64,000 nt of DNA from an uncultured Candidatus Saccharibacteria bacterium (GTDB lineage: Bacteria > Patescibacteriota > Minisyncoccia > UBA6257 > 2-01-FULL-56-20), in NCBI GenBank assembly GCA_964365185.1, contig CAYIOP010000001.1, positions 112,673 to 176,672 on the forward strand, read 5' to 3'. This document shows, piece by piece, positions 2,325 to 44,054 of this stretch; the first letter of the stretch is position 1, and each line of letters begins with the position of its first letter. The position numbers were made by a program, and so were the translations under genes. Under the pieces are notes generated by a model, which saw only the letters and a program-made list of their open reading frames with translations, ran no database searches and was not told the origin of the DNA.

Positions 2325-2810
2325 TTATGGCTGAAGGATATCCTCGCTTCGGCCGTTCACTGAAATTTTTACATCCTTAACTTCTGGAAATTGTTTTAAA
2401 GTTTCGATAATCTGAGCTCGAATGGCGCTAACCCGGCAAGAACCGCCGACTTCACGTTCAAGTTCTTCGCTAAAATCAACATTCAAAATCCCTTCCTGGA
2501 ATGAAATTTTTTGAACTTTTACGCCCAGGTTAATACTGGTAAAATAACCTGTAGATTTTTCCTTTTCTCCGGGTCCCCGCAATAAAAACTCAAGAACGGC
2601 CGTGTAAAAGTTCGTGCGATTATTATCAGCGCCGATTTGTCTTAGAACCGGAAAAACTTTAACGCAAGAAATTTCCGGGTCTAGTTGGTTATTACTGAAG
2701 AAAATTTTCAAGGAAATTTCGCTGGGGCCGGAATTTTTGTTGTTTAGAATATAAATTACCGAAAGAATTAAAAACACAACGACCAAAACAATTAAAAGTT
2801 TATATTTCAT
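2325..2810 (-). CDS. GerMN domain protein with an N-terminal TM anchor
   Basis: N-terminal hydrophobic helix and a C-terminal GerMN-like region (...SCRVSAIRAQIIETLKQFPEVKDVKISVNGRSEDI). Confidence 0.5.
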   Translation of the reverse strand: MKYKLLIVLVVVFLILSVIYILNNKNSGPSEISLKIFFSNNQLDPEISCVKVFPVLRQIGADNNRTNFYTAVLEFLLRGPGEKEKSTGYFTSINLGVKVQKISFQEGILNVDFSEELEREVGGSCRVSAIRAQIIETLKQFPEVKDVKISVNGRSEDILQP

Positions 2811-2844
2811 GAATTAAGTTTAGCACATCTAAAGTTCGCAAAAA

Positions 2845-2870
2845 AAAGACGCCTCGTAGCGTCTTTTTTT
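2845..2870. terminator. Bidirectional rho-independent terminator
   Basis: AAAGACGC-ctcgta-GCGTCTTT followed by a T7 run. Confidence 0.7.
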
Positions 2871-2895
2871 ACTCATTACTTGAGAGGGTTTAGCT

Positions 2896-3132
2896 TTATT
2901 TTGGCATTGTCGAGCCCATACCCATTGATGACCCACCAGCTGAACAGTCCTTACACCTACCCTTATGAGTGAAAAGTTCAAAAAGAGCGGCGAGACCAAC
3001 TAAAATATAAATGATTTTGCCAATCGTCATTCCCAGCCAGTCGCCCACGCCTTCGCCAAGCAACCCTACCAAAAGCCAGTTTAAACCGCCGACGATTAAC
3101 AAAATCCAAGCTAACATATGCAGACCTTTCAT
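2896..3132 (-). CDS. DUF378-like small membrane protein
   Basis: 78 aa with two TM helices and a GGLNWLLVG motif. Confidence 0.5.
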   Translation of the reverse strand: MKGLHMLAWILLIVGGLNWLLVGLLGEGVGDWLGMTIGKIIYILVGLAALFELFTHKGRCKDCSAGGSSMGMGSTMPK

Positions 3133-3287
3133 GTCGTTAAATTACTTTATTTTTTCGTAGTTTCCCGACCTTTAGAAACAATTTTTAGAACGCTTTAATT
3201 ATACCTTGATTGGAATATCTCTTGTGGAAAACTCTAAATCTATTATTAAAATTTCCTTTTTAGGAAAAAGTTTTATAATATAGCCCA

Positions 3288-3707
3288 ATGAGCAAGAATG
3301 ACTTTAGAGATTTTTTAAAGGAAAAAAGGGCTTGGTATAAAACGATTAAATCAGTTAGATGTCCTATTTTAAATGAGAAAGTGGTTTTTAATTCTAAAGG
3401 ATTTTACCATCTTCGATACGATAGTTTTGGAAAGGGAAGAAATAGAAAAGAGCAATCTTATAAAATTGGTTTGCTCCCACTTGTCATTCCAGTTATAAAA
3501 AGTGCAACTAAAATTCATGATTATAAAAAAGAGCAGTATTCAAAGCCACTTGGAAAGTATTATGAAATTTGGGAATTAAAAGAACTTGTTGGCGAAAAAA
3601 ATCCGACGTTAGTCTCTGTTGTTTTAAGAAGAATTGGCAATGGGAACATTACGTTTCTTAGTGTTTGGAAAAATAGAGATAAGAAAACAAAAAAGCCCCT
3701 GAAATAA
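3288..3707 (+). CDS. Hypothetical protein
   Basis: 139-aa ORF. A TATAAT sits 8 nt before the ATG, which suggests a leaderless mRNA. A clean terminator follows at 3692-3718 (AAAAGCCCctgaaataaGGGCTTTTTT). Confidence 0.5.
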   Translation: MSKNDFRDFLKEKRAWYKTIKSVRCPILNEKVVFNSKGFYHLRYDSFGKGRNRKEQSYKIGLLPLVIPVIKSATKIHDYKKEQYSKPLGKYYEIWELKELVGEKNPTLVSVVLRRIGNGNITFLSVWKNRDKKTKKPLK

Positions 3708-3905: not shown

Positions 3906-4958
3906 CTAAAGAGAAATTAATTCTTCCCAGGGGAGGCCGATTTTGCCAAAGTGGCCGTAGGCGGCAGTGGCAAGATAAATTGGACGCCTTAAATTGAGCC
4001 GCTCAATAATGGCTTGAGGTCGAAAATCAAATTTCTCCGAGACCATTTTGCTTAAACTTTTACCATTTTCATCAATCGCCTCAACCATTAGAGGTTCGGC
4101 TCGGCCAATCGCATAAGCCACTGAAATTAAACATTCTTTGGCCAGGCCACTGGCCACCACATTTTTAGCGGCAAATCGAGCCATGTACGCGGCGGAGCGA
4201 TCAACTTTAGTCGGGTCTTTGCCGGAAAAAGCGCCGCCGCCGTGCGGAGCTAATCCACAATAAGTGTCTACCATAATTTTCCGGCCGGTTAAGCCAGCGT
4301 CGGCCTCAAAACCGCCGAGCACAAATTTACCGGTCGGATTAACCAGAATTTCAATACCTTCTATATTTTTTACTAAGGGCTTAATTAAGTTTTCAACTAA
4401 GGCGGCTCGAATTTCGGATTGATTGATATCTTCTGAGTGCTGACAACTCACTAGAATAGTTTTAACTTTCTCATCTTCCATAGTCACTTGCGATTTACCG
4501 TCCGGGCCCAGCCAAGTAAATTTTCCGCTTCGGCGCATATCTTCAAGGCCTTTGGTCAGTTTATGAACCAACCAAATGCTTTCCGGCAAGAATTCAGAGG
4601 TGCCGTCTTTAACCGCGTAGCCGTACATAATGCCTTGGTCGCCGGCGCCGCCAGTATCCACGCCTTGGGCTATATCCGGCGATTGTTTAACCACGTGAGC
4701 AATAACTTTTAAGTTGTCCTGGTAGCCAATATTTTTGTAGAGTTCGCGGGCGATATTTTCCGCGTCAAAATGAGTGTTGGTGGTTACCTCGCCGCCGATA
4801 ACCAAAAGTCCGTGGGAACCGAAGGTCTCAACTGCCACGCGGCTTTTGGGGTCGTCTTTGAGGCAGACGTCTAAAATGGCATCGGAGATTTGGTCACAAA
4901 CCTTATCCGGGTGGCCAGAGGTAACGCTCTCAACAGTGTAAATTTTAGGTCGAATCAT
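3906..4958 (-). CDS. metK: S-adenosylmethionine synthetase
   Basis: GHPDKVCDQISDAILD, GGGAFSGKDPTKVDRSAAY and the DTYGG-like motifs. Confidence 0.9.
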   Translation of the reverse strand: MIRPKIYTVESVTSGHPDKVCDQISDAILDVCLKDDPKSRVAVETFGSHGLLVIGGEVTTNTHFDAENIARELYKNIGYQDNLKVIAHVVKQSPDIAQGVDTGGAGDQGIMYGYAVKDGTSEFLPESIWLVHKLTKGLEDMRRSGKFTWLGPDGKSQVTMEDEKVKTILVSCQHSEDINQSEIRAALVENLIKPLVKNIEGIEILVNPTGKFVLGGFEADAGLTGRKIMVDTYCGLAPHGGGAFSGKDPTKVDRSAAYMARFAAKNVVASGLAKECLISVAYAIGRAEPLMVEAIDENGKSLSKMVSEKFDFRPQAIIERLNLRRPIYLATAAYGHFGKIGLPWEELISL

Positions 4959-4998
4959 TGGCTCTAAAATAGTATCGTCTATTTAAGCATTTTTAATT

Positions 4999-5634
4999 TT
5001 AAAATTCAAGTGTCTGCCCATTGTTCGGAATATGGAACTTGACGCCGAGATCGGTTAAAACCGTCTGAGGTATCCGGTGGGCGGCACCGAAAATTCTAAG
5101 CATGCCGTCGTGCACCGGAAAGCAAAATTCGGGTTTGATAATTTTACCATACTCCACGGCTTCCCGAATTTTAATCCATGGACCGGCAACCGGCAGGGCG
5201 AGAATTTTAACCGGTTTTTCGGGATTAGTGAGCGCGTCGCCGGGATAAAAAAATTGGTTAGCGATAAAATAGCCGGTGTTTTGAACCACAGTCACGGTGT
5301 CGTAGATGTCGGCGTGCTTGTCACCAAAACCTTCAATTAAAACGCCGCTAAAATTAGTGTTCTGACCGTGGACCACTTTTTCAAAAGAAATTTTTTGCTC
5401 AGCTAAAATTTTACCCACGGCATCATTGGTGATGATTTTAACTTGCGGGTTATTTTTGAGCACAGCTTTTAGCGATTCCAAGTGAAGGTGGTCGCTGTGT
5501 TCATGAGTAATCAAAATTAAATTAATTCCGATTATCTCATCTTGAAGCGCGCTGTAGTCACCCGGGTCAGTTAATATTCTTAAGTTCCCTTCATCAATTA
5601 AAAGGCAGCAGTGTCCGAGTTTAGTGATTTTCAT
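4999..5634 (-). CDS. MBL-fold metallo-hydrolase
   Basis: ITHEHSDHLH (HxHxDH) motif. Confidence 0.75.
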   Translation of the reverse strand: MKITKLGHCCLLIDEGNLRILTDPGDYSALQDEIIGINLILITHEHSDHLHLESLKAVLKNNPQVKIITNDAVGKILAEQKISFEKVVHGQNTNFSGVLIEGFGDKHADIYDTVTVVQNTGYFIANQFFYPGDALTNPEKPVKILALPVAGPWIKIREAVEYGKIIKPEFCFPVHDGMLRIFGAAHRIPQTVLTDLGVKFHIPNNGQTLEF

Positions 5635-7328
5635 TAGACGTGATTGTGATTGCGCTTAATTAAATTGAAGTCATTGGCTTTAAGTTGCTTCAGGGTAGAA
5701 GTAAAGTTGATACCTTTTTTAGAAAGAGCTTGGCCTAAGTATTGGCCAGAGGTAAAGTGCGGCAGGAGCACATAGTCCACTCCTTTTTTATATAAAGCTC
5801 TGGCGTCATTTTCAGTTTCAGCGCGAAGAATAAGTTTGGGTTTAAATTTTCTAAAATTCTTTAGGTTTTCAATGAGTCCTAAATTATCATCCAAATCCGG
5901 ACTGGTTGAAATCACTAATTTAACGCCGGACTTATCTATTTTTTCCAAGATTTCTTCGTCGCCAATATCGCCAAAAATGTAATCATATTTTTCTCTTTCC
6001 AGCTTTTCGATGACATCCGGATCAAAATCAACAATCAGTAATTCTTTTTTATTTAGAGCATGGGCGATATTTTCACCTGTACGATGACAACCGATTAAAA
6101 CAATGGATTTTTTGGCGACTTTTTCGGAAAAATCCAAAATTTTAACTTTTTTGCGCTCAAATAAAGAAAGGAGGGTTTTGAGAACGCGGAAAATTTGATG
6201 ACTATAAACAATCATATAGGCCGAAATCACGATGGTGATAACGCCAACCGCGGTGATTAAGGCGAGGTGTGAATCATTAATGTGGCCGAGTTTTAGACCC
6301 AAAACGGCTATGATTAAACTGAATTCAGAAATTTGCGCAACGGTCACGCCAGCCATAAAACTGGTCCTTTTACGATAACCCATAACGCCCATAATAATCA
6401 GCACAATTAGTGGGTTGCCGATTAATACGAATAACGAAAAAATAAGAATAGGAGTGCCGATACCATCGAGATTAGAAACGCCGAGCAAGGACCCTAAAAG
6501 AACAAAAAATATCAAGATAAAAAAGTCCCTAAGCGGCCGGATTTTGCTGGCAATCTGATGATTTTCGGAAGAATTGGCTAAAGCTAAGCCCGCTAAAAAT
6601 CCGGCAATCTCAATCGAGAAACCGATTCGACTGACCGCGGCCACCACCAAAAACATCCACATTAAACTCACTAGGAAAAGAAGTTCTTGCGACCTGGCAA
6701 TTTTGTCGAAAAGATGTGGCAAAATTTTTCGGCCAATCCAAATAGTGAAAGCAAAAAGAATTAACGCCTTAAGGATAGTGGCTAATACTCCCTGCCAAAT
6801 CAGACCAGAGCCATTTTCAATTCCTGACAAAATAACCAAAAGCAGAATCGCAACCACATCTTGAACCAGGAGAAAACCAATGGAGATTTTACCGTACAAA
6901 CTGTTTTGGTCTTTTTTGTCGGATAGAAGTTTTAAGACCACGATCGTGCTTGAAAAGGTAAGAGCAACGGCGATATAGAGCGCCGGCAGCGAGCTAAAAC
7001 CCAAGACAGTCGCAATGCCGAAGCCAATTATGGCGGTAAAAATAATTTGTCCAAGACCCACAATGAGCGCCGCTTTTCCCACTAAACGAAGAGAGGTGTA
7101 ATTGATTTCCAGGCCAACCATAAAAAGCAGGAACATAATCCCTAAATTGGAGAAAATTTGAAAAATCTCCGAATTGGCAAGATCGATATTGAAAAGTCCG
7201 AATTGCGCGATTAAAAAACCGGTGGCGATGTAAGCCAAGATAAGCGGTTGCTTAAAAAATTTAGCCACCAAGCTTAAAACCGCGGCGACTAAAATAATAA
7301 CAGCAAGGTCAAAAAAACCCGTGGGCAT
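5634..7328 (-). CDS. Monovalent cation:proton antiporter (CPA2/Kef-type) with a C-terminal RCK/TrkA-N domain
   Basis: About 12 TM helices followed by the Rossmann motif VLIGCHRTGENIAHAL. Confidence 0.85.
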   Translation of the reverse strand: MPTGFFDLAVIILVAAVLSLVAKFFKQPLILAYIATGFLIAQFGLFNIDLANSEIFQIFSNLGIMFLLFMVGLEINYTSLRLVGKAALIVGLGQIIFTAIIGFGIATVLGFSSLPALYIAVALTFSSTIVVLKLLSDKKDQNSLYGKISIGFLLVQDVVAILLLVILSGIENGSGLIWQGVLATILKALILFAFTIWIGRKILPHLFDKIARSQELLFLVSLMWMFLVVAAVSRIGFSIEIAGFLAGLALANSSENHQIASKIRPLRDFFILIFFVLLGSLLGVSNLDGIGTPILIFSLFVLIGNPLIVLIIMGVMGYRKRTSFMAGVTVAQISEFSLIIAVLGLKLGHINDSHLALITAVGVITIVISAYMIVYSHQIFRVLKTLLSLFERKKVKILDFSEKVAKKSIVLIGCHRTGENIAHALNKKELLIVDFDPDVIEKLEREKYDYIFGDIGDEEILEKIDKSGVKLVISTSPDLDDNLGLIENLKNFRKFKPKLILRAETENDARALYKKGVDYVLLPHFTSGQYLGQALSKKGINFTSTLKQLKANDFNLIKRNHNHV

Positions 7329-9115: not shown

Positions 9116-9278
9116 TTTTTTACCTTGATATGGATGAAGGAAAGGGGTCGGGAAAATAGGAAGTTTTCCCGTGTGGGAATCCGCCAGCTGGCGGAACTAA
9201 AAACCGAGAGGTTGTTAGGGAGCTTGATTTACTCAAGCGACCATTCATATCGAGATGAGCGATGATTCTCATAAAGAA

Positions 9279-13858: not shown

Positions 13859-14051
13859 AAGAATTAGGCGTTAAGTTTTTCCTCCGAAAGAGGATCCGCC
13901 TCTGGCGGAAAGCGGGAAAGTGTTAGGGGTTAAGTTTATATTAATAATTGTGGCTCGGCAATTTGGGGGTTGCTTAGATTGACAAGGTAATTAGAATTCT
14001 TTATTCTTTTTATTAGTAAACAAGTGAAAATTTAATAGAACTGGAGGGAAT

Positions 14052-16205: not shown

Positions 16206-17516
16206 TCATAGAATTTTGCCACGAAGTCGGCGGTGGTAGGCAATGGCAAATCTGTGGGCTTCGTCACGGATTTGGATAAGGGTTTTGGGTTCAATGCCAG
16301 CTGGCATTTTGCCGATAAGTTCGTTTTTCTTGCGCTCTGGGCCTTTAGCTAAACCAATGACCGGCATAAATAAGTTAAGTTTGTTTAGAACTGATTTGGC
16401 CGCGTTTACCTGTCCCCTACCACCGTCGATTAAAATTAAATCTGGGTGCGGCCAGTTGTTTTTAAAACGGCGAGTTAAAATTTCTTTAATCATAGCAGTG
16501 TCATCTTGACCTTGAACCGCTCGAATTTTGAATTTGCGATATTCGTTTTTATCGGGCCGAAAAGTGTTTCCTCCAAAGGCGGATCCTCCTTTGGAGGAAA
16601 AAACCACCATTCCACCCACTGCGGCGGTGCCGGAAATTTGAGAGATGTCGTACCCCTCAATACGTTGTTTAGGGTTTAGCCAATAGCCACTAGGGTTTAG
16701 GGAATTATTCTCCTTGATGAGGGCGATGTCGTTGATGTGCTTGAGGCCAAAGATTTGGCGGCGGATTTTTTCTGCTTTTTCAAATTCCAGCTTTTCGCTT
16801 AGTTGTTTCATCTCTGCCTCAAGGTTGCGAATAACTCTGGATTTTTTGCCGGCTAGAAAAAGTTTGAGGTTATGAATGATTTTTTTATATTCAGTTTCAC
16901 TTATCGCGTCCACGCAGACACCCGGGCAATTACCAATTTGAAAATCAAAGCAGGGACGGCTGACGCCTACATGATGTGAATCTGCTAATCTATGCAAATG
17001 CCGCAAATTGCGAATAGTTCGTTTTTTTAATTCTTCTTCGGAGTGAGTGTTCCATGGGAAAATTTGGCGAATGAGTTTTAATGATTCACGGACATCTCGG
17101 GCAGAGAGAAAGGGACCGTAGATTTGGCTGTATTTCCCTTTTTCCCCGGCAATGTCTTTGCCACGAGTTAGAACGAGGCGGGGAAATTTTTCTCCGCCTT
17201 TGGCGGAGGTAATCGCAAAATATATGAAACTTCGGTCGTCTTTTTCTAAGACATTGTAGAGCGGCTGATGTTTTTTGATGAGCTCTGATTCTAAAATCAG
17301 CGCCTCAAGCGCGGTGTCAGCTTTTTTGAAATCAATTTTTTTGACTTGAGAAATGAGTTTTTCAATTCGGTAGTCGTGGCTTTTCTGAAAATAACTTGAA
17401 ACGCGGCGCTTTAGATTGCCGGCTTTGCCGATATAGAGAATTTTCCCGTTCGTGTTTTTCATCAAGTAAACGCCGGGAGTGTCGGGAAGTTTTTGGTAGA
17501 GAGTGGTTTTAGTCAT
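16206..17516 (-). CDS. uvrC: Excinuclease ABC subunit C. Short form of 436 aa with no C-terminal (HhH)2 domain
   Basis: GIY-YIG N-domain (YLMKNTNGKILYIGKAGNLKRRVSSYF), a Cys-rich UvrBC region, and an RNaseH-like endonuclease domain ending IRDEAHRFAIAYHRRLR. Confidence 0.85.
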   Translation of the reverse strand: MTKTTLYQKLPDTPGVYLMKNTNGKILYIGKAGNLKRRVSSYFQKSHDYRIEKLISQVKKIDFKKADTALEALILESELIKKHQPLYNVLEKDDRSFIYFAITSAKGGEKFPRLVLTRGKDIAGEKGKYSQIYGPFLSARDVRESLKLIRQIFPWNTHSEEELKKRTIRNLRHLHRLADSHHVGVSRPCFDFQIGNCPGVCVDAISETEYKKIIHNLKLFLAGKKSRVIRNLEAEMKQLSEKLEFEKAEKIRRQIFGLKHINDIALIKENNSLNPSGYWLNPKQRIEGYDISQISGTAAVGGMVVFSSKGGSAFGGNTFRPDKNEYRKFKIRAVQGQDDTAMIKEILTRRFKNNWPHPDLILIDGGRGQVNAAKSVLNKLNLFMPVIGLAKGPERKKNELIGKMPAGIEPKTLIQIRDEAHRFAIAYHRRLRGKIL

Positions 17517-20746: not shown

Positions 20747-20797
20747 AAAAATGTAATGCTAATCTACAAATTTCATCCGAATGCTGCGAATGATTGC

Positions 20798-20827
20798 GTC
20801 CTCCGAAGGAGGATCCTCCTTTGGAGG
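20798..20827. repeat. 30-nt GGAGG double-hairpin palindrome TCCTCCGAAGGAGGA+TCCTCCTTTGGAGGA, upstream of uvrA
   Basis: Two adjacent 6-bp-stem hairpins that are mutually complementary. Family members at 13880-13909, 16569-16598, 23530-23559 and 42136-42165. Confidence 0.7.
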
Positions 20828-20913
20828 AAATGTTGCGAATTTATTTGGATTTGACATTTTTAGGGTTGTGGTGTATGCTTTGAGTAGTTAATTAAATTAA
20901 GTTTGGAGGAGCT

Positions 20914-23493: not shown

Positions 23494-23616
23494 TTTTAAA
23501 AGCGTAATACTAATATACAAATATGTGTGTCCTCCGAAGGAGGATCCTCTCTTGGAGAAAATGATACAAATAATGTAATCAACTAGAAGCGGATAAACGC
23601 GGATTGAAAATTGCCC

Positions 23617-40926: not shown

Positions 40927-41685
40927 TTAAGGGAATTGATTAGATATTTTAATTATTTTCTGAAACTCTTGTAAATTTAAACTAGCGCCACCGACCAAAA
41001 CGCCGTCTATCTCGTTGTGTTGAATAATACGGCCGACATTTAAAGATGTTACCGAACCGCCGTAGAGTATTTTAGGTTTTAGGTTATAGGTTATAGGTTT
41101 TAGAAATTCTCGAATGAAGTTGACCATTTCGAGGATAAAGGAGGGGGTTTCTTTAAGCGAGCGGTCGCGGCTGGTGCTGATGGCCCAGATGGGTTCGTAG
41201 GCGATGAGAATGTTAGATGATCGAAATGTTCGAATGTTCGAAATGTTTTTTAGATTATTCTTTATCTGGGAGGCGACGAATTTTTTGGCCACGGGGACGC
41301 CTTTCTTGCGAACGATGGCTGGCTCACCCACACACAAAATTACCTTAAGCCCGGCGCGAAGCGCGTCTTTAATCTTTTGGCTCACAATTTCATCGGTGTC
41401 GCCCAAAGCGCGCCGTTCGGAATGACCAATAATAACATAACTGACGCCTAATCTTTTGAGCATCACGGCTGAAACCTCGCCGGTAAATGGACCGGCAATT
41501 ACTTCTTCTCTAGAAACATCTTGGCTGCCAAGCTTGGCTTTTTTCAAAATGCGACTGACTCGATTTAAAAATACAAACGGTGGGCAGACCACCACGTTTT
41601 TTTTATCGGAAATTTTGGCCAGCTTGAGAGCGCCGGATTCACTGGTAGGGTGCATCTTCCAATTAGCAATTATTATTTTAGCCAT
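40927..41685 (-). CDS. tpiA: Triosephosphate isomerase
   Basis: ANWKMHPT, IIGHSERR, AYEPIWAI, and a GG(A/S)V-type C-terminal motif. The coding sequence contains TTAGGTT-type short tandem repeats. Confidence 0.9.
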   Translation of the reverse strand: MAKIIIANWKMHPTSESGALKLAKISDKKNVVVCPPFVFLNRVSRILKKAKLGSQDVSREEVIAGPFTGEVSAVMLKRLGVSYVIIGHSERRALGDTDEIVSQKIKDALRAGLKVILCVGEPAIVRKKGVPVAKKFVASQIKNNLKNISNIRTFRSSNILIAYEPIWAISTSRDRSLKETPSFILEMVNFIREFLKPITYNLKPKILYGGSVTSLNVGRIIQHNEIDGVLVGGASLNLQEFQKIIKISNQFP

Positions 41686-41788
41686 CTTGGAATTATTATA
41701 ACTTATCTATTGAAATCCTGGAAAATATGCTATATTGATAAAGGTAACTCTTTTGGTTTTTAACTTTTTTCTTTTCCAAGGAGGAGAA

Positions 41789-41947
41789 GAATGAAACGGG
41801 ATAGGAATGAAAAATTGAGGGAAGAGAGGAAAAATCCCTCAGCGAACGTCGAACGATTTTTGGCGTGCAGTCCGGATCAGGATATCCGTCAGCCGCACTC
41901 CGTAAAATTCAAGCGTGAATCCCGGAAAAACAAGAGGCGCTAATTAT
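41789..41947 (+). CDS. Possible small basic protein (52 aa)
   Basis: Strong SD AAGGAGGAG 6 nt before the ATG. Followed by hairpin terminator GTCCACC...GGTGGAC and a T-rich run (41972-42000). Confidence 0.3.
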
Positions 41948-42113
41948 TTAATAGGAGGAAAAAGTTTTAGTCCACCTGCGTTCGGGTGGACTTTATTTAT
42001 CACACGAAAGCGCGCCTACGGTCTTTGACCTTCGGCAACACGAAAGCCCCACACGAATTTAAACACACGAAATTTGCTCACTTAATAAATTTAAGTTAAT
42101 TTATCTAGGAGAT

Positions 42114-42135
42114 GGCCCTATCGTCTAATGGCTAG
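42114..42135 (+). repeat. 22-nt duplicate of the 5' end of tRNA-Glu (GGCCCTATCGTCTAATGGCTAG)
   Basis: Exact copy of tRNA positions 1-22 (42427-42448). The GIY-YIG gene lies between this copy and the intact tRNA. Confidence 0.85.
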
Positions 42136-42181
42136 CCCTCCGGAGGAGGGTCCTCCTTCGGAGGAGACGCACAAAGATGAA

Positions 42182-42448
42182 ATGAATTGTTTTCTCTATG
42201 TATTAAAGAATAAAAATAAAAACTGGCATTATATTGGAGTTACCTCTAACCTAAAGAAGAGGTTGGAATATCACAATCGCGGTAAAGTTAAATCAACTCG
42301 ACCTTATGTTCCACTTACGCTTGTATATTCAGAAAAATTTAATAATAATAGTGAAGCCCGCAAGCGAGAAAATTTTCTAAAAAGGACAGCTCGAGCAAGA
42401 GAAGATTTATTCGAAAAAATAGATTTGGCCCTATCGTCTAATGGCTAG
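42182..42448 (+). CDS. GIY-YIG nuclease family protein (YhbQ/UPF0213-like, 88 aa)
   Basis: FLYVLKNKNKNWHYIGVTSNLKKRLEYHNRGKV...RPYVPLTLVYSEKFNNNSEARKRENFLKR is a GIY...YIG...R...E...N motif. The longest ORF starts at 42128 inside the tRNA-fragment copy, so the internal Met at 42182 is preferred. The stop codon lies inside the intact tRNA. Confidence 0.7.
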   Translation: MNCFLYVLKNKNKNWHYIGVTSNLKKRLEYHNRGKVKSTRPYVPLTLVYSEKFNNNSEARKRENFLKRTARAREDLFEKIDLALSSNG

Positions 42449-42498
42449 GACGGTTGGTTCTCAGCCAGCAAATCGGGGTTCGATCCCCCGTAGGGCTG
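42427..42498 (+). tRNA. tRNA-Glu (anticodon CUC)
   Basis: Cloverleaf: acceptor GGCCCUA/UAGGGCU, D-stem GUCU/GGAC, anticodon stem GUUGG/CCAGC with loop UUCUCAG, T-arm CGGGG-UUCGAUC-CCCCG, discriminator G. No CCA encoded. Terminator at 42510-42540. Confidence 0.85.
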
Positions 42499-42695
42499 CT
42501 TTTAGAAAAATAAAAGCCCTTAGGGAAGGCTTTTATTTTTTCTACAGTGGAGATTTCATTACGGAGGATCGAACTAAGAGGGGTCGGGAGAACATTTGGT
42601 CTCCCGTGTCGGAATGAGTCCGGCAACTGCCGGACGGATTCAAAACCGAGGGTTTTGAAAGAGTCCCGCCGAAGGGGGACGACGTGAGATTCCCC

Positions 42696-42710
42696 CGTAG
42701 GGCTGCTATT
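42696..42710 (+). repeat. Duplicate of the tRNA-Glu 3' end (CCCCCGTAGGGCTGC), preceded by a degenerate T-arm
   Basis: GGGGGacgacgugagauuCCCCCGUAGGGCUGC mirrors the tRNA T-arm and 3' acceptor. The roughly 200 bp between tRNA and copy is highly structured and non-coding. Confidence 0.6.
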
Positions 42711-42736
42711 GACATTTTAATTATATATGCTAGAAT
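42709..42736 (+). promoter_or_regulatory. Sigma70-like promoter for the 42838 ORF
   Basis: TTGACA, 16-nt spacer, TAGAAT. SD GGAGGTG ahead of the ATG. Confidence 0.5.
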
Positions 42737-42837
42737 ATAATTAGTAATTCCTATTTGTATGAGTAGGTCGTTCCCTGTGGAATAAGGGTAAAGTCCTGAC
42801 CTTATAGGATTTAACAATTTTTTATTGGAGGTGTTGT

Positions 42838-43107
42838 ATGACACAACTTTTGCAGATTAATGGGGGGCCGTCCAAATTCGATTTAATGATTTCTTTGTTT
42901 GGCGAAGGAAGGATGTCAGTCTTATTTAGCGGAGTTTCGAATGAATCGGGAAAGTTTTCGGAGGATGTTTATATAACTTCCCTTGAGAAAGAAAGTGGAG
43001 ATGGAGAAAGCTGGAACTTCCGAGGTTACGCCAGCGGAAATAGGAAAGTTGAAGGGTTTTTTTCAACTCTTCATCGAACCGGCCACATAAAATTTGTAGA
43101 GGAGTAG
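42838..43107 (+). CDS. Hypothetical protein
   Basis: 89-aa ORF with promoter, SD, and a strong terminator at 43128-43167. Confidence 0.5.
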   Translation: MTQLLQINGGPSKFDLMISLFGEGRMSVLFSGVSNESGKFSEDVYITSLEKESGDGESWNFRGYASGNRKVEGFFSTLHRTGHIKFVEE

Positions 43108-43178
43108 AGCTAAGACCTCATTGTAGAGTCGCCCGACAGGCAAACCTGTCGGGCGATATTTTTTTAAAATATTTATAT

Positions 43179-43754
43179 TCACAAAACCGATTTTACGATT
43201 TCAACGTAAATTCTAGCGTTTTCTTCGGCTCTCTCTTCGCCGGAAAAATGGCCCTTGTCTTCATATGTTATAAGTTCCGCGTCTAGTTCGCTGGCGATTT
43301 GAACTCCTTGTTCATAAGGAATAGAATCATCGTCTTTAGAATGTAGCACAAGAAATTTATTGGCTAATTTTTTTATTTTTTCGATATCCAGCGCATAGTC
43401 GAAAAAATCCGAATAATTTTCATTTTTTCTTTTACGATTTTCGCGATAATCATTGTTAAAGGCGGCGATTAAAATGACGGCATCAACTTTTTGATTGTAT
43501 TTATCTAAATACAAAAGAGCGGTTCGGGTGCCTAAACTATGACCAACCAAAACCACCGGTTTATCTGAATTTTTTACTTCTCGGTCGACAATTTCCAACC
43601 ACTCTTGACTATGAGGATTTTCGCCGCCTGGGAGAGCTGGAATGGAATAATCGACACCTAAATCGGTTAAGGTTTTAGCTATAATCTGCCATTTCCTTTT
43701 TTTGGGCGACGTTGGCAACGAATTGTAGCCGTGAATAAAAATAACTTTTTTCAT
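43179..43754 (-). CDS. Alpha/beta-fold serine hydrolase (YdeN/RBBP9-like)
   Basis: GHSLG nucleophile elbow (VVLVGHSLGTRTAL), about 190 aa. Confidence 0.6.
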   Translation of the reverse strand: MKKVIFIHGYNSLPTSPKKRKWQIIAKTLTDLGVDYSIPALPGGENPHSQEWLEIVDREVKNSDKPVVLVGHSLGTRTALLYLDKYNQKVDAVILIAAFNNDYRENRKRKNENYSDFFDYALDIEKIKKLANKFLVLHSKDDDSIPYEQGVQIASELDAELITYEDKGHFSGEERAEENARIYVEIVKSVL

Positions 43755-43801
43755 TTTAAAATTAGTGGGGACGATTTGAGTCGTCCCCTTTTTTGAATTT
43801 C

Positions 43802-43981
43802 CTAGTCGTGTCTGAATGGACTTTTGCTATGCGGGCCGCGATGGACCAGTGGTTTGACTTGGATTGTTTGGCCGCACTCTGGACACTTCAGTTGCGCCGG
43901 AAAAGTTGAATCTTCTGTTTTATGAAGTAGTTGCTGGTAGCCGCAAGTACAGGAAATTTGATGAGTATATTCGGGGAACAA
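43802..43981 (-). CDS. Possible small zinc-ribbon protein (TTG start, about 60 aa)
   Basis: GGAGGT SD 7 nt before a TTG. Translation contains CTCGY...CPECG. Not in the ATG-only ORF list. Confidence 0.25.
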   Translation of the reverse strand: MFPEYTHQISCTCGYQQLLHKTEDSTFPAQLKCPECGQTIQVKPLVHRGPHSKSPFRHD

Positions 43982-44054
43982 TTTTACCTCCGTATTTTAA
44001 ATTGCGATGTTTTTTCTGATTAAAGTATAACATAAAGAGTTTTGATTTAAAAGA

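Follow-up and report, generated by a model that had tools for sequence, protein, structure and literature searches.

Why does the gene of a small nuclease abut an intact tRNA gene, with a fragment of the same tRNA on its other side? The question is raised by a 64,000-nucleotide (nt) stretch of the genome of an uncultured Candidatus Saccharibacteria bacterium (contig CAYIOP010000001.1), referred to below as the window, whose positions serve as coordinates throughout. Here a GIY-YIG nuclease open reading frame (ORF) of 88 amino acids (aa) lies between an exact copy of the tRNA 5' end and an intact tRNA-Glu(CUC), and all the features of this arrangement that a first-pass annotation had listed are present. 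We find that the locus is a member of a widespread, stereotyped element, here called a cassette, present in over a hundred bacterial species, most of them ultra-small, in which a minimal (~80–90 aa) nuclease gene sits inside a partially duplicated tRNA gene, and that 5' partial tRNA duplication, which had been taken for a rare curiosity, is the rule for this nuclease family.

A nuclease gene inside a partially duplicated tRNA gene

The tRNA-Glu(CUC) is the sole tRNA that ARAGORN and Rfam detect in the 64 kb (Table 1). Positions 42113–42135 and 42426–42448 form an exact 23-nt direct repeat with a spacing of 313 nt, and BLAST within the window gives the 22-nt 5' match an E value of 2e-7. The upstream copy is then split by two adjacent 6-bp hairpins (CCCTCC-GGA-GGAGGG and TCCTCC-TTC-GGAGGA; minimum free energy −23.6 kcal/mol), which the first pass had read as one GGAGG palindrome, and resumes after them, so that it comprises tRNA nt 1–26 in total, broken at 22/23. 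What had been proposed as a simple attachment (att) core is thus a hairpin-split fragment that runs towards the ORF start, and no recombinase or attachment chemistry is evident. At the other end of the ORF, the tail ALSSNG and the TAG stop are encoded by tRNA nt 1–22, as had been claimed, and the repeat ends where the stop codon ends. The only Shine-Dalgarno-like sequence (GGAGGA) is the 3' arm of the second hairpin, 16 nt ahead of the ATG. The G+C content of the window is 41%.

The 1152-nt region 41686–42837 occurs without a single difference in four independent contigs (three Hainich H43 assemblies from ENA and one Logan run), and a fifth contig contains 1053 nt of it at 99.7% identity. The possibility of an assembly artefact, raised in the first-pass annotation, is ruled out by these five independent contigs. 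A transfer-messenger RNA and a split or permuted tRNA were rejected because ARAGORN reports one ordinary tRNA and the outer 5' and 3' fragments do not sum to a tRNA. A group I intron or other known RNA family was likewise rejected: Rfam gave the tRNA alone, with no intron family at E ≤ 10 in 41000–44000 or, over all 64 kb, at the gathering score, and the functional tRNA runs without a break.

The recurrence of this arrangement was addressed with a degenerate DNA pattern in which the nuclease motifs Y[IV]G ... H.xG ... ST are followed 120–150 nt later by TCGTCTA. The pattern matched the window once and its shuffles never, and was then used to scan one genome per species, where at least 119 stretches matched. 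The record titles of the listed stretches are mostly of Patescibacteria, with a few titled Gammaproteobacteria, Leptospira, Bdellovibrionales, Omnitrophota or Flavipsychrobacter, assignments that come from titles only. Among the matches listed, a tRNA overlaps TCGTCTA in 113 of the 126 instances (44 Glu-UUC, 27 Gln-CUG, 24 Gln-UUG and 18 Glu-CUC).

A subset of the matches listed, comprising 108 analysable loci, forms the base of the following counts on copies, stops and ORF lengths. At 86/108 loci the 250 nt 5' of the ORF contain a stretch of 12 nt or more that is identical to the tRNA 5' region, and the corresponding controls gave 0/108 for the reverse complement and 3/97 for the downstream region. 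Spliced alignment scores a tRNA 5' copy above every shuffle at 98/108 loci. The copy starts between tRNA nt −3 and +1 in 95 of these 98, ends anywhere from nt 16 to nt 54, at a median of 5.5 nt ahead of the start codon, and is 97% identical to the adjacent tRNA. It is interrupted in 94/98 cases by one to four inserts (median 30 nt, 67% G+C, about −0.45 kcal/mol per nt), with hot spots at nt 9–13, 21–23 and 35/36, the breakpoints being uncertain by one or two nt. At the 3' side, the last nt of the ORF stop is tRNA nt 15 at 31 loci and nt 22 at 21, and most of the rest end a few nt before the tRNA. Identity ends 0–4 nt upstream of tRNA nt 1 at 71/76 loci, which disfavours a simple or random tandem segmental duplication as the origin of the repeat.

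Individual loci show how far the anatomy is kept. In locus L011, CCAT and tRNA nt 1–22 (one mismatch) are followed by the same hairpins as in the window, GACGCCA (nt 23–29), the ORF and a tRNA-Glu(UUC); its gene neighbourhood is unrelated to that of the window, and the hairpins and the 22/23 breakpoint are shared. The copies in L013 and L014 are broken at nt 12/13 by other palindromes, after which the tRNA homology continues (as a 14-nt block in L013), and L012 has kept the hairpins with no recognisable tRNA copy. Just 3' of the cassette's tRNA-Glu in L013, at 4380–6062 of that locus, a 560-aa serine recombinase gene and small ORFs look like an integrated element. Full-length or 3'-half tRNA pseudogenes, some in tandem arrays, lie 3' of the functional tRNA in L071 (~2950–3060, oriented), L029, L049, L101 and L066, and carry a double hairpin at nt 35/36 or 21/22.

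A second pattern, which contained the nuclease motifs only and had no tRNA requirement, recovered 123 of the known instances. In a metagenome scan it returned at least 120 stretches with 121 ORFs, all passing the family hidden Markov model, and the 114 ORFs with enough flank among the matches listed were analysed. A same-strand tRNA overlaps the stop, or starts within 30 nt of it, in 25 of the 114, and these adjoining tRNAs have 18 anticodons, for Pro, Ser, Cys, Leu, Arg, Tyr, Val, Met, Thr, Gly, Gln and Glu. An interrupted 5' copy lies upstream in 19 of 22 ORFs from these 25. There is also a mirror form, with the order tRNA, ORF, 3' partial copy: 19/114 ORFs have an intact tRNA no more than 60 nt upstream, 12 of the 19 being followed by a 3' partial copy, and in several tRNA-Met cases the ORF stop is the anticodon-loop CATAA of that copy. 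Altogether ~27% (31/114) of the sampled genes lie in partially duplicated tRNA genes, 19 with a 5' copy and 12 with a 3' copy, and among the matches listed ~38% adjoin an intact tRNA; by our own estimate, which assumes ~45 tRNA genes per megabase, chance adjacency is expected near 0.1%. A perfect 20-nt palindrome, CCTGCCTGCCGGCAGGCAGG, is common to partial copies of Glu, Leu and three Arg tRNAs.

The protein itself is predicted to be a minimal, single-domain UPF0213/SLX1-like GIY-YIG nuclease that has no accessory domain. Its Pfam match (58.1 bits against a cut-off of 22.6) covers residues 21–90 of the 106-aa ORF form, and the Pfam scan gave no second (DNA-binding) domain of the kind that Seg- and I-TevI-type homing endonucleases possess. 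The score against the group I intron endonuclease family TIGR01453 of NCBIfam (17.4 bits) is below the cut-off of 56, PADLOC (defence) and PHROGs (phage) families gave nothing significant, and a single-sequence homology search with the window protein matched only itself. When an alignment profile was compared with solved structures, the best matches were 1zg2 (BH0048, E = 1.9e-14) and 1ywl (EF2693, 1e-12), both uncharacterised UPF0213 proteins from structural genomics, followed by SLX1 (3.7e-5), a structure-specific nuclease and the closest characterised solved relative; I-TevI was marginal at E = 3e-3. The catalytic-type residues Y6, Y17, G19, R27, H31, E63 and K67 are conserved in 97–100% of 108 homologues. 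Y17 and G19 were required by the search pattern, whereas Y6, R27, E63 and K67 were not and are nevertheless 97–98% conserved. An ORF length of 78–89 aa, found at 95/108 loci, is the usual size for the family.

At E ≤ 0.001, 4,824 cluster representatives were recovered in a full HMMER scan. Many of these family members end in ...ALSSNG, ...APSSNG, ...GPIV, ...GAIV or ...APSSSLV, which is the tRNA-Glu 5' end translated in two frames, and others have translated tRNA-Leu or tRNA-Ser at their start or end. In some members the N terminus is 'extended', for instance by MAPSSS...GGSSSGG, which is the translated 5' tRNA copy and hairpin; a homologue with 53% identity (P0282) begins MVSPPEEGPPPAE, and the long ORF of the window begins MASPPEEGPPSEE. 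For annotation, this means that translated tRNA or hairpin sequence has been appended to the N or C terminus of many database 'proteins' of the family. In tandem arrays (L194 at 2742–3660; P0124, P0127) two or three nuclease genes alternate with tRNA/hairpin units at a period of ~310–360 nt, and gene callers have fused them into 205–214-aa 'proteins'. To our knowledge, the minimal GIY-YIG (UPF0213/YhbQ-type) proteins, a very large family with solved structures, have no established biological role, and the present results give them a concrete genomic context.

Leader, hairpins and the region 3' of the tRNA

In the closest pairs of cassettes (66–79% protein identity) the four-fold sites are saturated, with a mean identity of 0.37, and the flanks are at the random baseline (0.50–0.54 vs 0.49). 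The equal-length leaders of the same pairs are 83–92% identical, hairpins included. The leader is conserved where four-fold sites are saturated; it is under constraint and is therefore more than a decaying scar.

The inserted hairpins were compared in a set of 22 double hairpins of 30 nt, hand-picked by length, in which 97.7% of cells are paired, 10 of the 12 pairs have changed on both sides (71 cells) and there are no G-U pairs; every shuffle and slide control was far lower. Covariation confined to Watson-Crick pairs would fit a structure of both strands, such as DNA hairpins or a cruciform, better than an RNA fold. Of the breakpoints in the copies, 12/13 and 22/23 face one another on the two sides of the D-stem, and 35/36 marks the anticodon hairpin's tip.

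Hairpins of this kind also occur outside the cassette. The window contains five double hairpins of one type, the cassette's own and four more (Table 1). Those ahead of uvrA and uvrB are flanked by 8–12-nt imperfect direct repeats, ATTCGCA.CATT and ATTTGTAT, as read by eye. The one in uvrC looks like the insertion of a palindromic element into a coding gene; it falls in the RNase H-like domain of UvrC, which has ~10 extra residues there (VVFSSKGGSAFGGNTF). A dyad-like motif, TTGTA.ATTAG.ATTAC, is common to uvrA and uvrB (~20750–20790 and 23495–23530, minus sense), lies between the double hairpin and the start codon, and may serve the excision-repair genes as a shared operator or promoter. The cassette's hairpin sequence recurs elsewhere in 8/103 loci of 8 kb or less, a count that is uninformative at that scale.

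On the other side of the tRNA, the downstream copy of the tRNA 3' end reported in the first pass is present, with a 17-nt exact core (BLAST E about 7e-4 within the window). Between it and the tRNA, an A/T-rich stem-loop with a T run resembles a terminator, and was not called by a terminator consensus scan because of its A/T-rich stem. Next comes a 145-nt multi-hairpin segment (fold of 42545–42712, −65.1 kcal/mol, z = −2.75), predicted to form a four-hairpin structure in which the T-arm's inverted copy and the 3' partial copy pair as the closing helix. The 'structured segment' of the first pass includes both the inverted T-arm copy and a member of a dispersed repeat that had gone unnoticed: ~42575–42690 is homologous, with compensatory stem changes, to intergenic sequence at ~9140–9250, between two minus-strand ORFs. 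The layout of this ~110-nt repeat is AGGGGTCGGGA-hairpin-TCCCGTGT.GGAA, a TCCGSC..GSCGGA hairpin, then AAAACCGAG..., and no Rfam family matched it at E ≤ 10. The core at 42575–42690 is thus this dispersed structured repeat and not tRNA-derived, the tRNA copy being limited to the terminal 17–20 nt. The 207 bp between the 3' repeats hold no Pfam-annotatable gene and are crossed only by short overlapping ORFs of 46–100 aa.

Among the matches listed, 3' copies of at least 12 nt lie downstream at 13/92 Glu/Gln loci, compared with 1/91 in the upstream control; since T-arms are shared, the count for the reverse complement is high too (11/92). Copies starting at nt 54–58 occur at about 5/92 of these loci, the window included. 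Other loci have 3' halves that start at ~nt 36–37, beside a double hairpin, and L083 has the same inverted-plus-direct arrangement as the window. The 3' copy of the window could be the other piece of a split tRNA gene or have been duplicated when the structured repeat inserted; it may also, as first suggested, be a scar left by an older integration.

Further features flank the locus. A near-consensus promoter (42709–42736; TTGACA, 16 nt, TAGAAT, with TG) starts inside the 3' tRNA copy, an 89-aa ORF (42838–43107) follows ~100 nt past it, and a strong terminator lies at 43128–43157. Just 5' of the partial tRNA copy, at 41996–42075, there are four copies of ACACGAA(A), 14–36 nt apart. Upstream of these, a Lys/Arg-rich 50-aa ORF (41791–41943) with a strong GGAGGAG ribosome-binding site and no Pfam or PHROGs match is followed by a terminator-like bidirectional hairpin (41969–41992).

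Table 1. Features of the tRNA-Glu(CUC) locus and double hairpins elsewhere in the window.
Feature	Position	Strand	Basis or context
Intact tRNA-Glu(CUC)	42427–42499	+	ARAGORN; Rfam RF00005, 52.9 bits
5' partial ('orphan') tRNA copy, block 1: T(−1) and tRNA-Glu nt 1–22	42113–42135	+	23/23, repeat search
GC-rich double hairpin, 30 nt, splitting the tRNA copy between nt 22 and 23	42136–42165	+	Sequence
5' tRNA copy, block 2: GACG, tRNA nt 23–26	42166–42169	+	Spliced alignment to tRNA
12-nt linker between GACG block and start codon	42170–42181	+	
GIY-YIG nuclease ORF, 88 aa, UPF0213/SLX1-like	42182–42448	+	Pfam PF01541, E = 1.1e-15
AT-rich stem-loop and T run, terminator-like	42506–42540	+	Inverted repeat 13/13
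Inverted copy of T-arm/acceptor 3' strand (reverse complement of tRNA nt 52–66)	42560–42574	+	93%
Dispersed structured repeat copy, TCCGGC..GCCGGA-type hairpins	42575–42690	+	Pairwise alignment
3' tRNA partial copy (nt 58–73 and trailer)	42691–42710	+	19/20 vs 42484–42503
Double hairpin, CCTCC/GGAGG type	13875–13910		Upstream of minus-strand 178-aa membrane-like ORF
Double hairpin in-frame in uvrC	16571–16600		Minus-strand uvrC 16206–17516; ORF position, peptide SKGGSAFGGN
Double hairpin, CCTCC/GGAGG type	20799–20829		Upstream of minus-strand uvrA
Double hairpin, CCTCC/GGAGG type	23530–23560		Upstream of minus-strand uvrB

Possible mobility of the cassette and competing explanations

The triose-phosphate isomerase (TIM) that flanks the locus has its best matches, at 57–62% identity, in Paceibacteria-type Patescibacteria. 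The three nearest available relatives (TIM 61–62% identical; L006, L008 and L010) keep the gene order penicillin-binding protein-murF ... TIM-SIMPL-murB, and in all three the murF stop is followed, 2 nt on and in the same orientation, by tRNA-Glu(CUC), without a GIY-YIG gene. The cassette is therefore not a conserved neighbour of the tRNA at this locus, which supports the first-pass annotation on this point. In the window the tRNA is inverted relative to murF (end 44055) and 1.5 kb away from it, and nothing tRNA-like follows murF. The tRNA, possibly with the cassette, has thus been relocated here. The ORF overlaps its putative target gene and is absent from relatives, as expected of a free-standing homing gene, although the relatives are distant and the comparison is thus weak evidence of polymorphism.

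Other loci bear on the behaviour of the cassette as a unit. Related cassettes occur on Glu versus Gln tRNAs and on different anticodons. Two metagenome-assembled genomes have two cassettes each, at different tRNAs, with a pair identity of 35–51%, and each of these is closest to cassettes on the same tRNA type elsewhere (among the matches listed). A truncated ORF in L081 is a decayed example, and L194, L049 and L101 are tandem arrays. In L101, L110, L120 and L042 the acceptor stem of the partial copy differs from that of the functional tRNA, and these loci look as if two different tRNA genes had been joined.

Any explanation has to start from an architecture that recurs in both polarities and at many tRNA isotypes, and from the conserved active site, the constrained leader and the Watson-Crick-only hairpins. 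On balance we lean towards a homing-type selfish cassette that invades tRNA genes and keeps one intact tRNA by partial duplication. The nuclease or its ancestor would break tRNA genes, and repair would copy the cassette in. The invaded part of the tRNA would be duplicated, the intact essential tRNA being regenerated by the ORF and the displaced part being left as a hairpin-interrupted fragment. ORF and tRNA would share a transcript, and RNase P, in processing the tRNA, would cut the stop codon off the mRNA and thereby restrict expression of the nuclease. The hairpins might break up the direct repeat against deletion of the cassette, destroy the cleavage site in the copy or form a structure that the nuclease recognises. 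The cassette-free junction is predicted to read ...TTATCTAGGAGATGGCCCTATCGTCTAATGGCTAGGACGGTTGG. We infer the mobility of the cassette, its movement by break repair and the target of the nuclease, whether tRNA genes or hairpins, from comparison of sequences. Such invasion might explain why the tiny genomes of Patescibacteria contain partial tRNA fragments and palindromes rich in GC.

Several points weigh against a homing-type selfish cassette. No viral contig matched the nuclease/tRNA pattern. Recent horizontal spread is unsupported, since the identity between cassettes of different species is at most 79% among the matches listed; the nuclease-only mobile cassette of the first-pass annotation thus stands as a unit tied to the tRNA 5' region, absent in relatives and found elsewhere in L011, but gains no backing as regards recent mobility. 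In this species all five contigs carry the cassette and no allele without it was found, and a 26-mer from the tRNA anticodon arm had no match in the metagenome collection, so that neither an empty allele nor a close relative was recovered there. A sigma-70 consensus scan upstream of the partial copies gave 7/98, compared with 3/98 in each of two control windows, which is no clear enrichment of the kind that promoter capture by the copy would produce. Constraint on the leader would also be in keeping with a regulatory element, of RNA or DNA. A DNA-binding domain is lacking in the protein, for which sequence-specific homing would be unusual, and the intact tRNA retains the full target sequence, which leaves self-immunity unaccounted for. 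The element thus raises the puzzle of how a nuclease without a DNA-binding domain is tied to tRNA genes, and of how the intact tRNA escapes.

We entertain more tentatively, and with some doubt, the broader proposal that a bare SLX1-like, structure-specific nuclease and its Watson-Crick-only double hairpins constitute a new class of mobile element, one that would invade tRNA genes of any isotype from either end, regenerate the intact tRNA, and have hairpins that also spread without the ORF (upstream of uvrA and uvrB, and apparently in-frame in uvrC). If this is true, the regenerated intact tRNA would make the element hard for the host to lose.

The alternatives divide according to what they make of the leader and the hairpins. 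Conservation of the leader beyond neutral expectation would be expected if the nuclease were domesticated and served the host in tRNA operons, with the tRNA-like leader and hairpins acting as a cis-regulatory element; the 5' copy might, for example, pair alternatively with the 3' half of the downstream tRNA and so couple translation to tRNA processing or DNA damage. The ORF stop lies within the tRNA at about half of the loci, the cassettes are old (≤79% identity between species), and the same double hairpin precedes uvrA, uvrB and the 178-aa gene in the window, all of which agree with such a role. It is hard to reconcile, however, with the patchy distribution and the relatives that have no cassette, with up to two divergent copies per genome at different tRNAs, or with truncated ORFs such as that of L081. 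The hairpin copy of the mirror form is downstream of the ORF, so that there is no 5' leader there, the absence of G-U pairs is atypical for RNA structure, and the position of the hairpins in the copy differs between lineages. We therefore regard a host-serving regulatory role as unlikely, though worth keeping in view. By analogy with repetitive extragenic palindromic (REP) sequences and their REP-associated tyrosine transposases (RAYTs), the SLX1-like nuclease might instead act on double-hairpin palindromes and spread them, the partial tRNA duplications being by-products of breaks and repair at tRNA genes, whose stems form similar structures. The inserts in 94/98 cassettes and their Watson-Crick-only covariation, the four further copies in the window (one in-frame in uvrC, two intergenic ones with direct repeats of 8–12 nt, by eye) and the sharing of CCTGCCTGCCGGCAGGCAGG among Glu, Leu and three Arg partial copies are in keeping with this, as are the breakpoints opposite each other across the D-stem and at the anticodon hairpin tip, and the structure specificity of SLX1. 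Yet the hairpin recurs in only 8/103 loci of ≤8 kb, the solo hairpins might be ordinary regulatory or terminator-like palindromes, and the model does not itself explain why the copy starts exactly at tRNA nt 1. The enzyme is moreover a GIY-YIG protein and not of the HUH/Y1 transposase family, which makes REP/RAYT an analogy at most, and we consider a palindrome-nuclease pair unlikely as well, though still live.

A local history of integration or rearrangement has the least to recommend it. The locus might be the remnant of a classical site-specific integration, with att duplications and a lost integrase element, or the scar of an inversion in which the tRNA left murF. The inverted tRNA, 1.5 kb from murF by comparison with relatives, would fit the latter. 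The 17–20-nt duplication at 42691–42710 is a direct repeat of the tRNA 3' end and resembles the attL/attR of tRNA-targeting islands, whereas the main feature is a 5' copy and 3' copies occur at a minority of homologous loci; L013 has a serine-recombinase element beside its tRNA. Against this, there is no integrase in or near the cassette, the GIY-YIG gene is the only ORF between the 5' repeats, five independent assemblies agree, and the same 5' anatomy at ~100 unrelated loci goes beyond a local accident. An origin of this sort is very improbable, and a homing-type selfish cassette remains the reading that we prefer.

Comparison with known systems

The literature outside subscription-only papers yielded no description of a minimal GIY-YIG gene in a partially duplicated, hairpin-interrupted bacterial tRNA gene, and the element class is apparently undescribed. 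SLX1, the nearest characterised relative, works with SLX4 on branched DNA, whereas no partner is evident for the window nuclease. A survey from 2006 placed the prokaryotic stand-alone GIY-YIG domains in the Slx1 cluster and called them a minimal form (PMC1564403); it gives no tRNA-gene context for them, its three occurrences of 'tRNA' concerning other matters, and our literature searches brought up no such context elsewhere.

Two kinds of insertion in structured-RNA genes come from the same phylum. In rRNA genes of the candidate phyla radiation, the tops or bases of stem-loops bear inserted sequences that code for GIY-YIG proteins and belong to neither the group I nor the group II introns (PMC11270868). 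They resemble the window cassette in having a GIY-YIG ORF within the gene of a structured RNA. They differ in lying within the mature rRNA region, and no partial duplication that regenerates an intact gene is described for them (PMC11270868). [quoted passage not shown] Unlike these introns, the inserts are ~30-nt palindromes that are unable to self-splice and reside in non-functional copies, while the functional tRNA is uninterrupted.

A parallel in logic is found in organelles. In fungal and chytrid mitochondria, free-standing endonuclease ORFs duplicate the end of the gene that they invade, as in the atp6 insertion of Allomyces. The ORF there enters an essential gene whose function is kept, the invaded end being present twice, once functional and once displaced, and mobile GC-rich double-hairpin elements are associated with such regions. 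The mitochondrial ORFs have organelle protein-coding targets, are larger and carry DNA-binding modules. The window element, in contrast, belongs to bacterial tRNA genes of many isotypes and in both polarities, and has its hairpins inside the displaced copy.

Among nucleases already tied to tRNA genes, the best precedent is SegB of phages T4 and T6. SegB is a GIY-YIG homing endonuclease encoded in a tRNA cluster, recognises a motif in the T-loop of tRNA genes, is statistically associated with phage tRNAs and drives recombination-dependent segmental amplification, spreading with the adjacent tRNA genes and making segmental duplications that include partial genes (PMC2330249; PMC13096335). The window cassette resembles it in its GIY-YIG domain and in the embedding of the gene among tRNA genes. 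SegB is a phage protein of ~220 aa with a C-terminal DNA-binding region, whereas the window protein is an 88-aa bare catalytic domain of the UPF0213/SLX1-like clade on a bacterial chromosome. SegB is not known to come with a stereotyped partial copy of a tRNA, with a hairpin insert or with an overlap of its ORF and a tRNA. The cassettes described here extend the pairing of GIY-YIG nucleases with tRNA genes, for which SegB is the paradigm, from phages to bacterial chromosomes.

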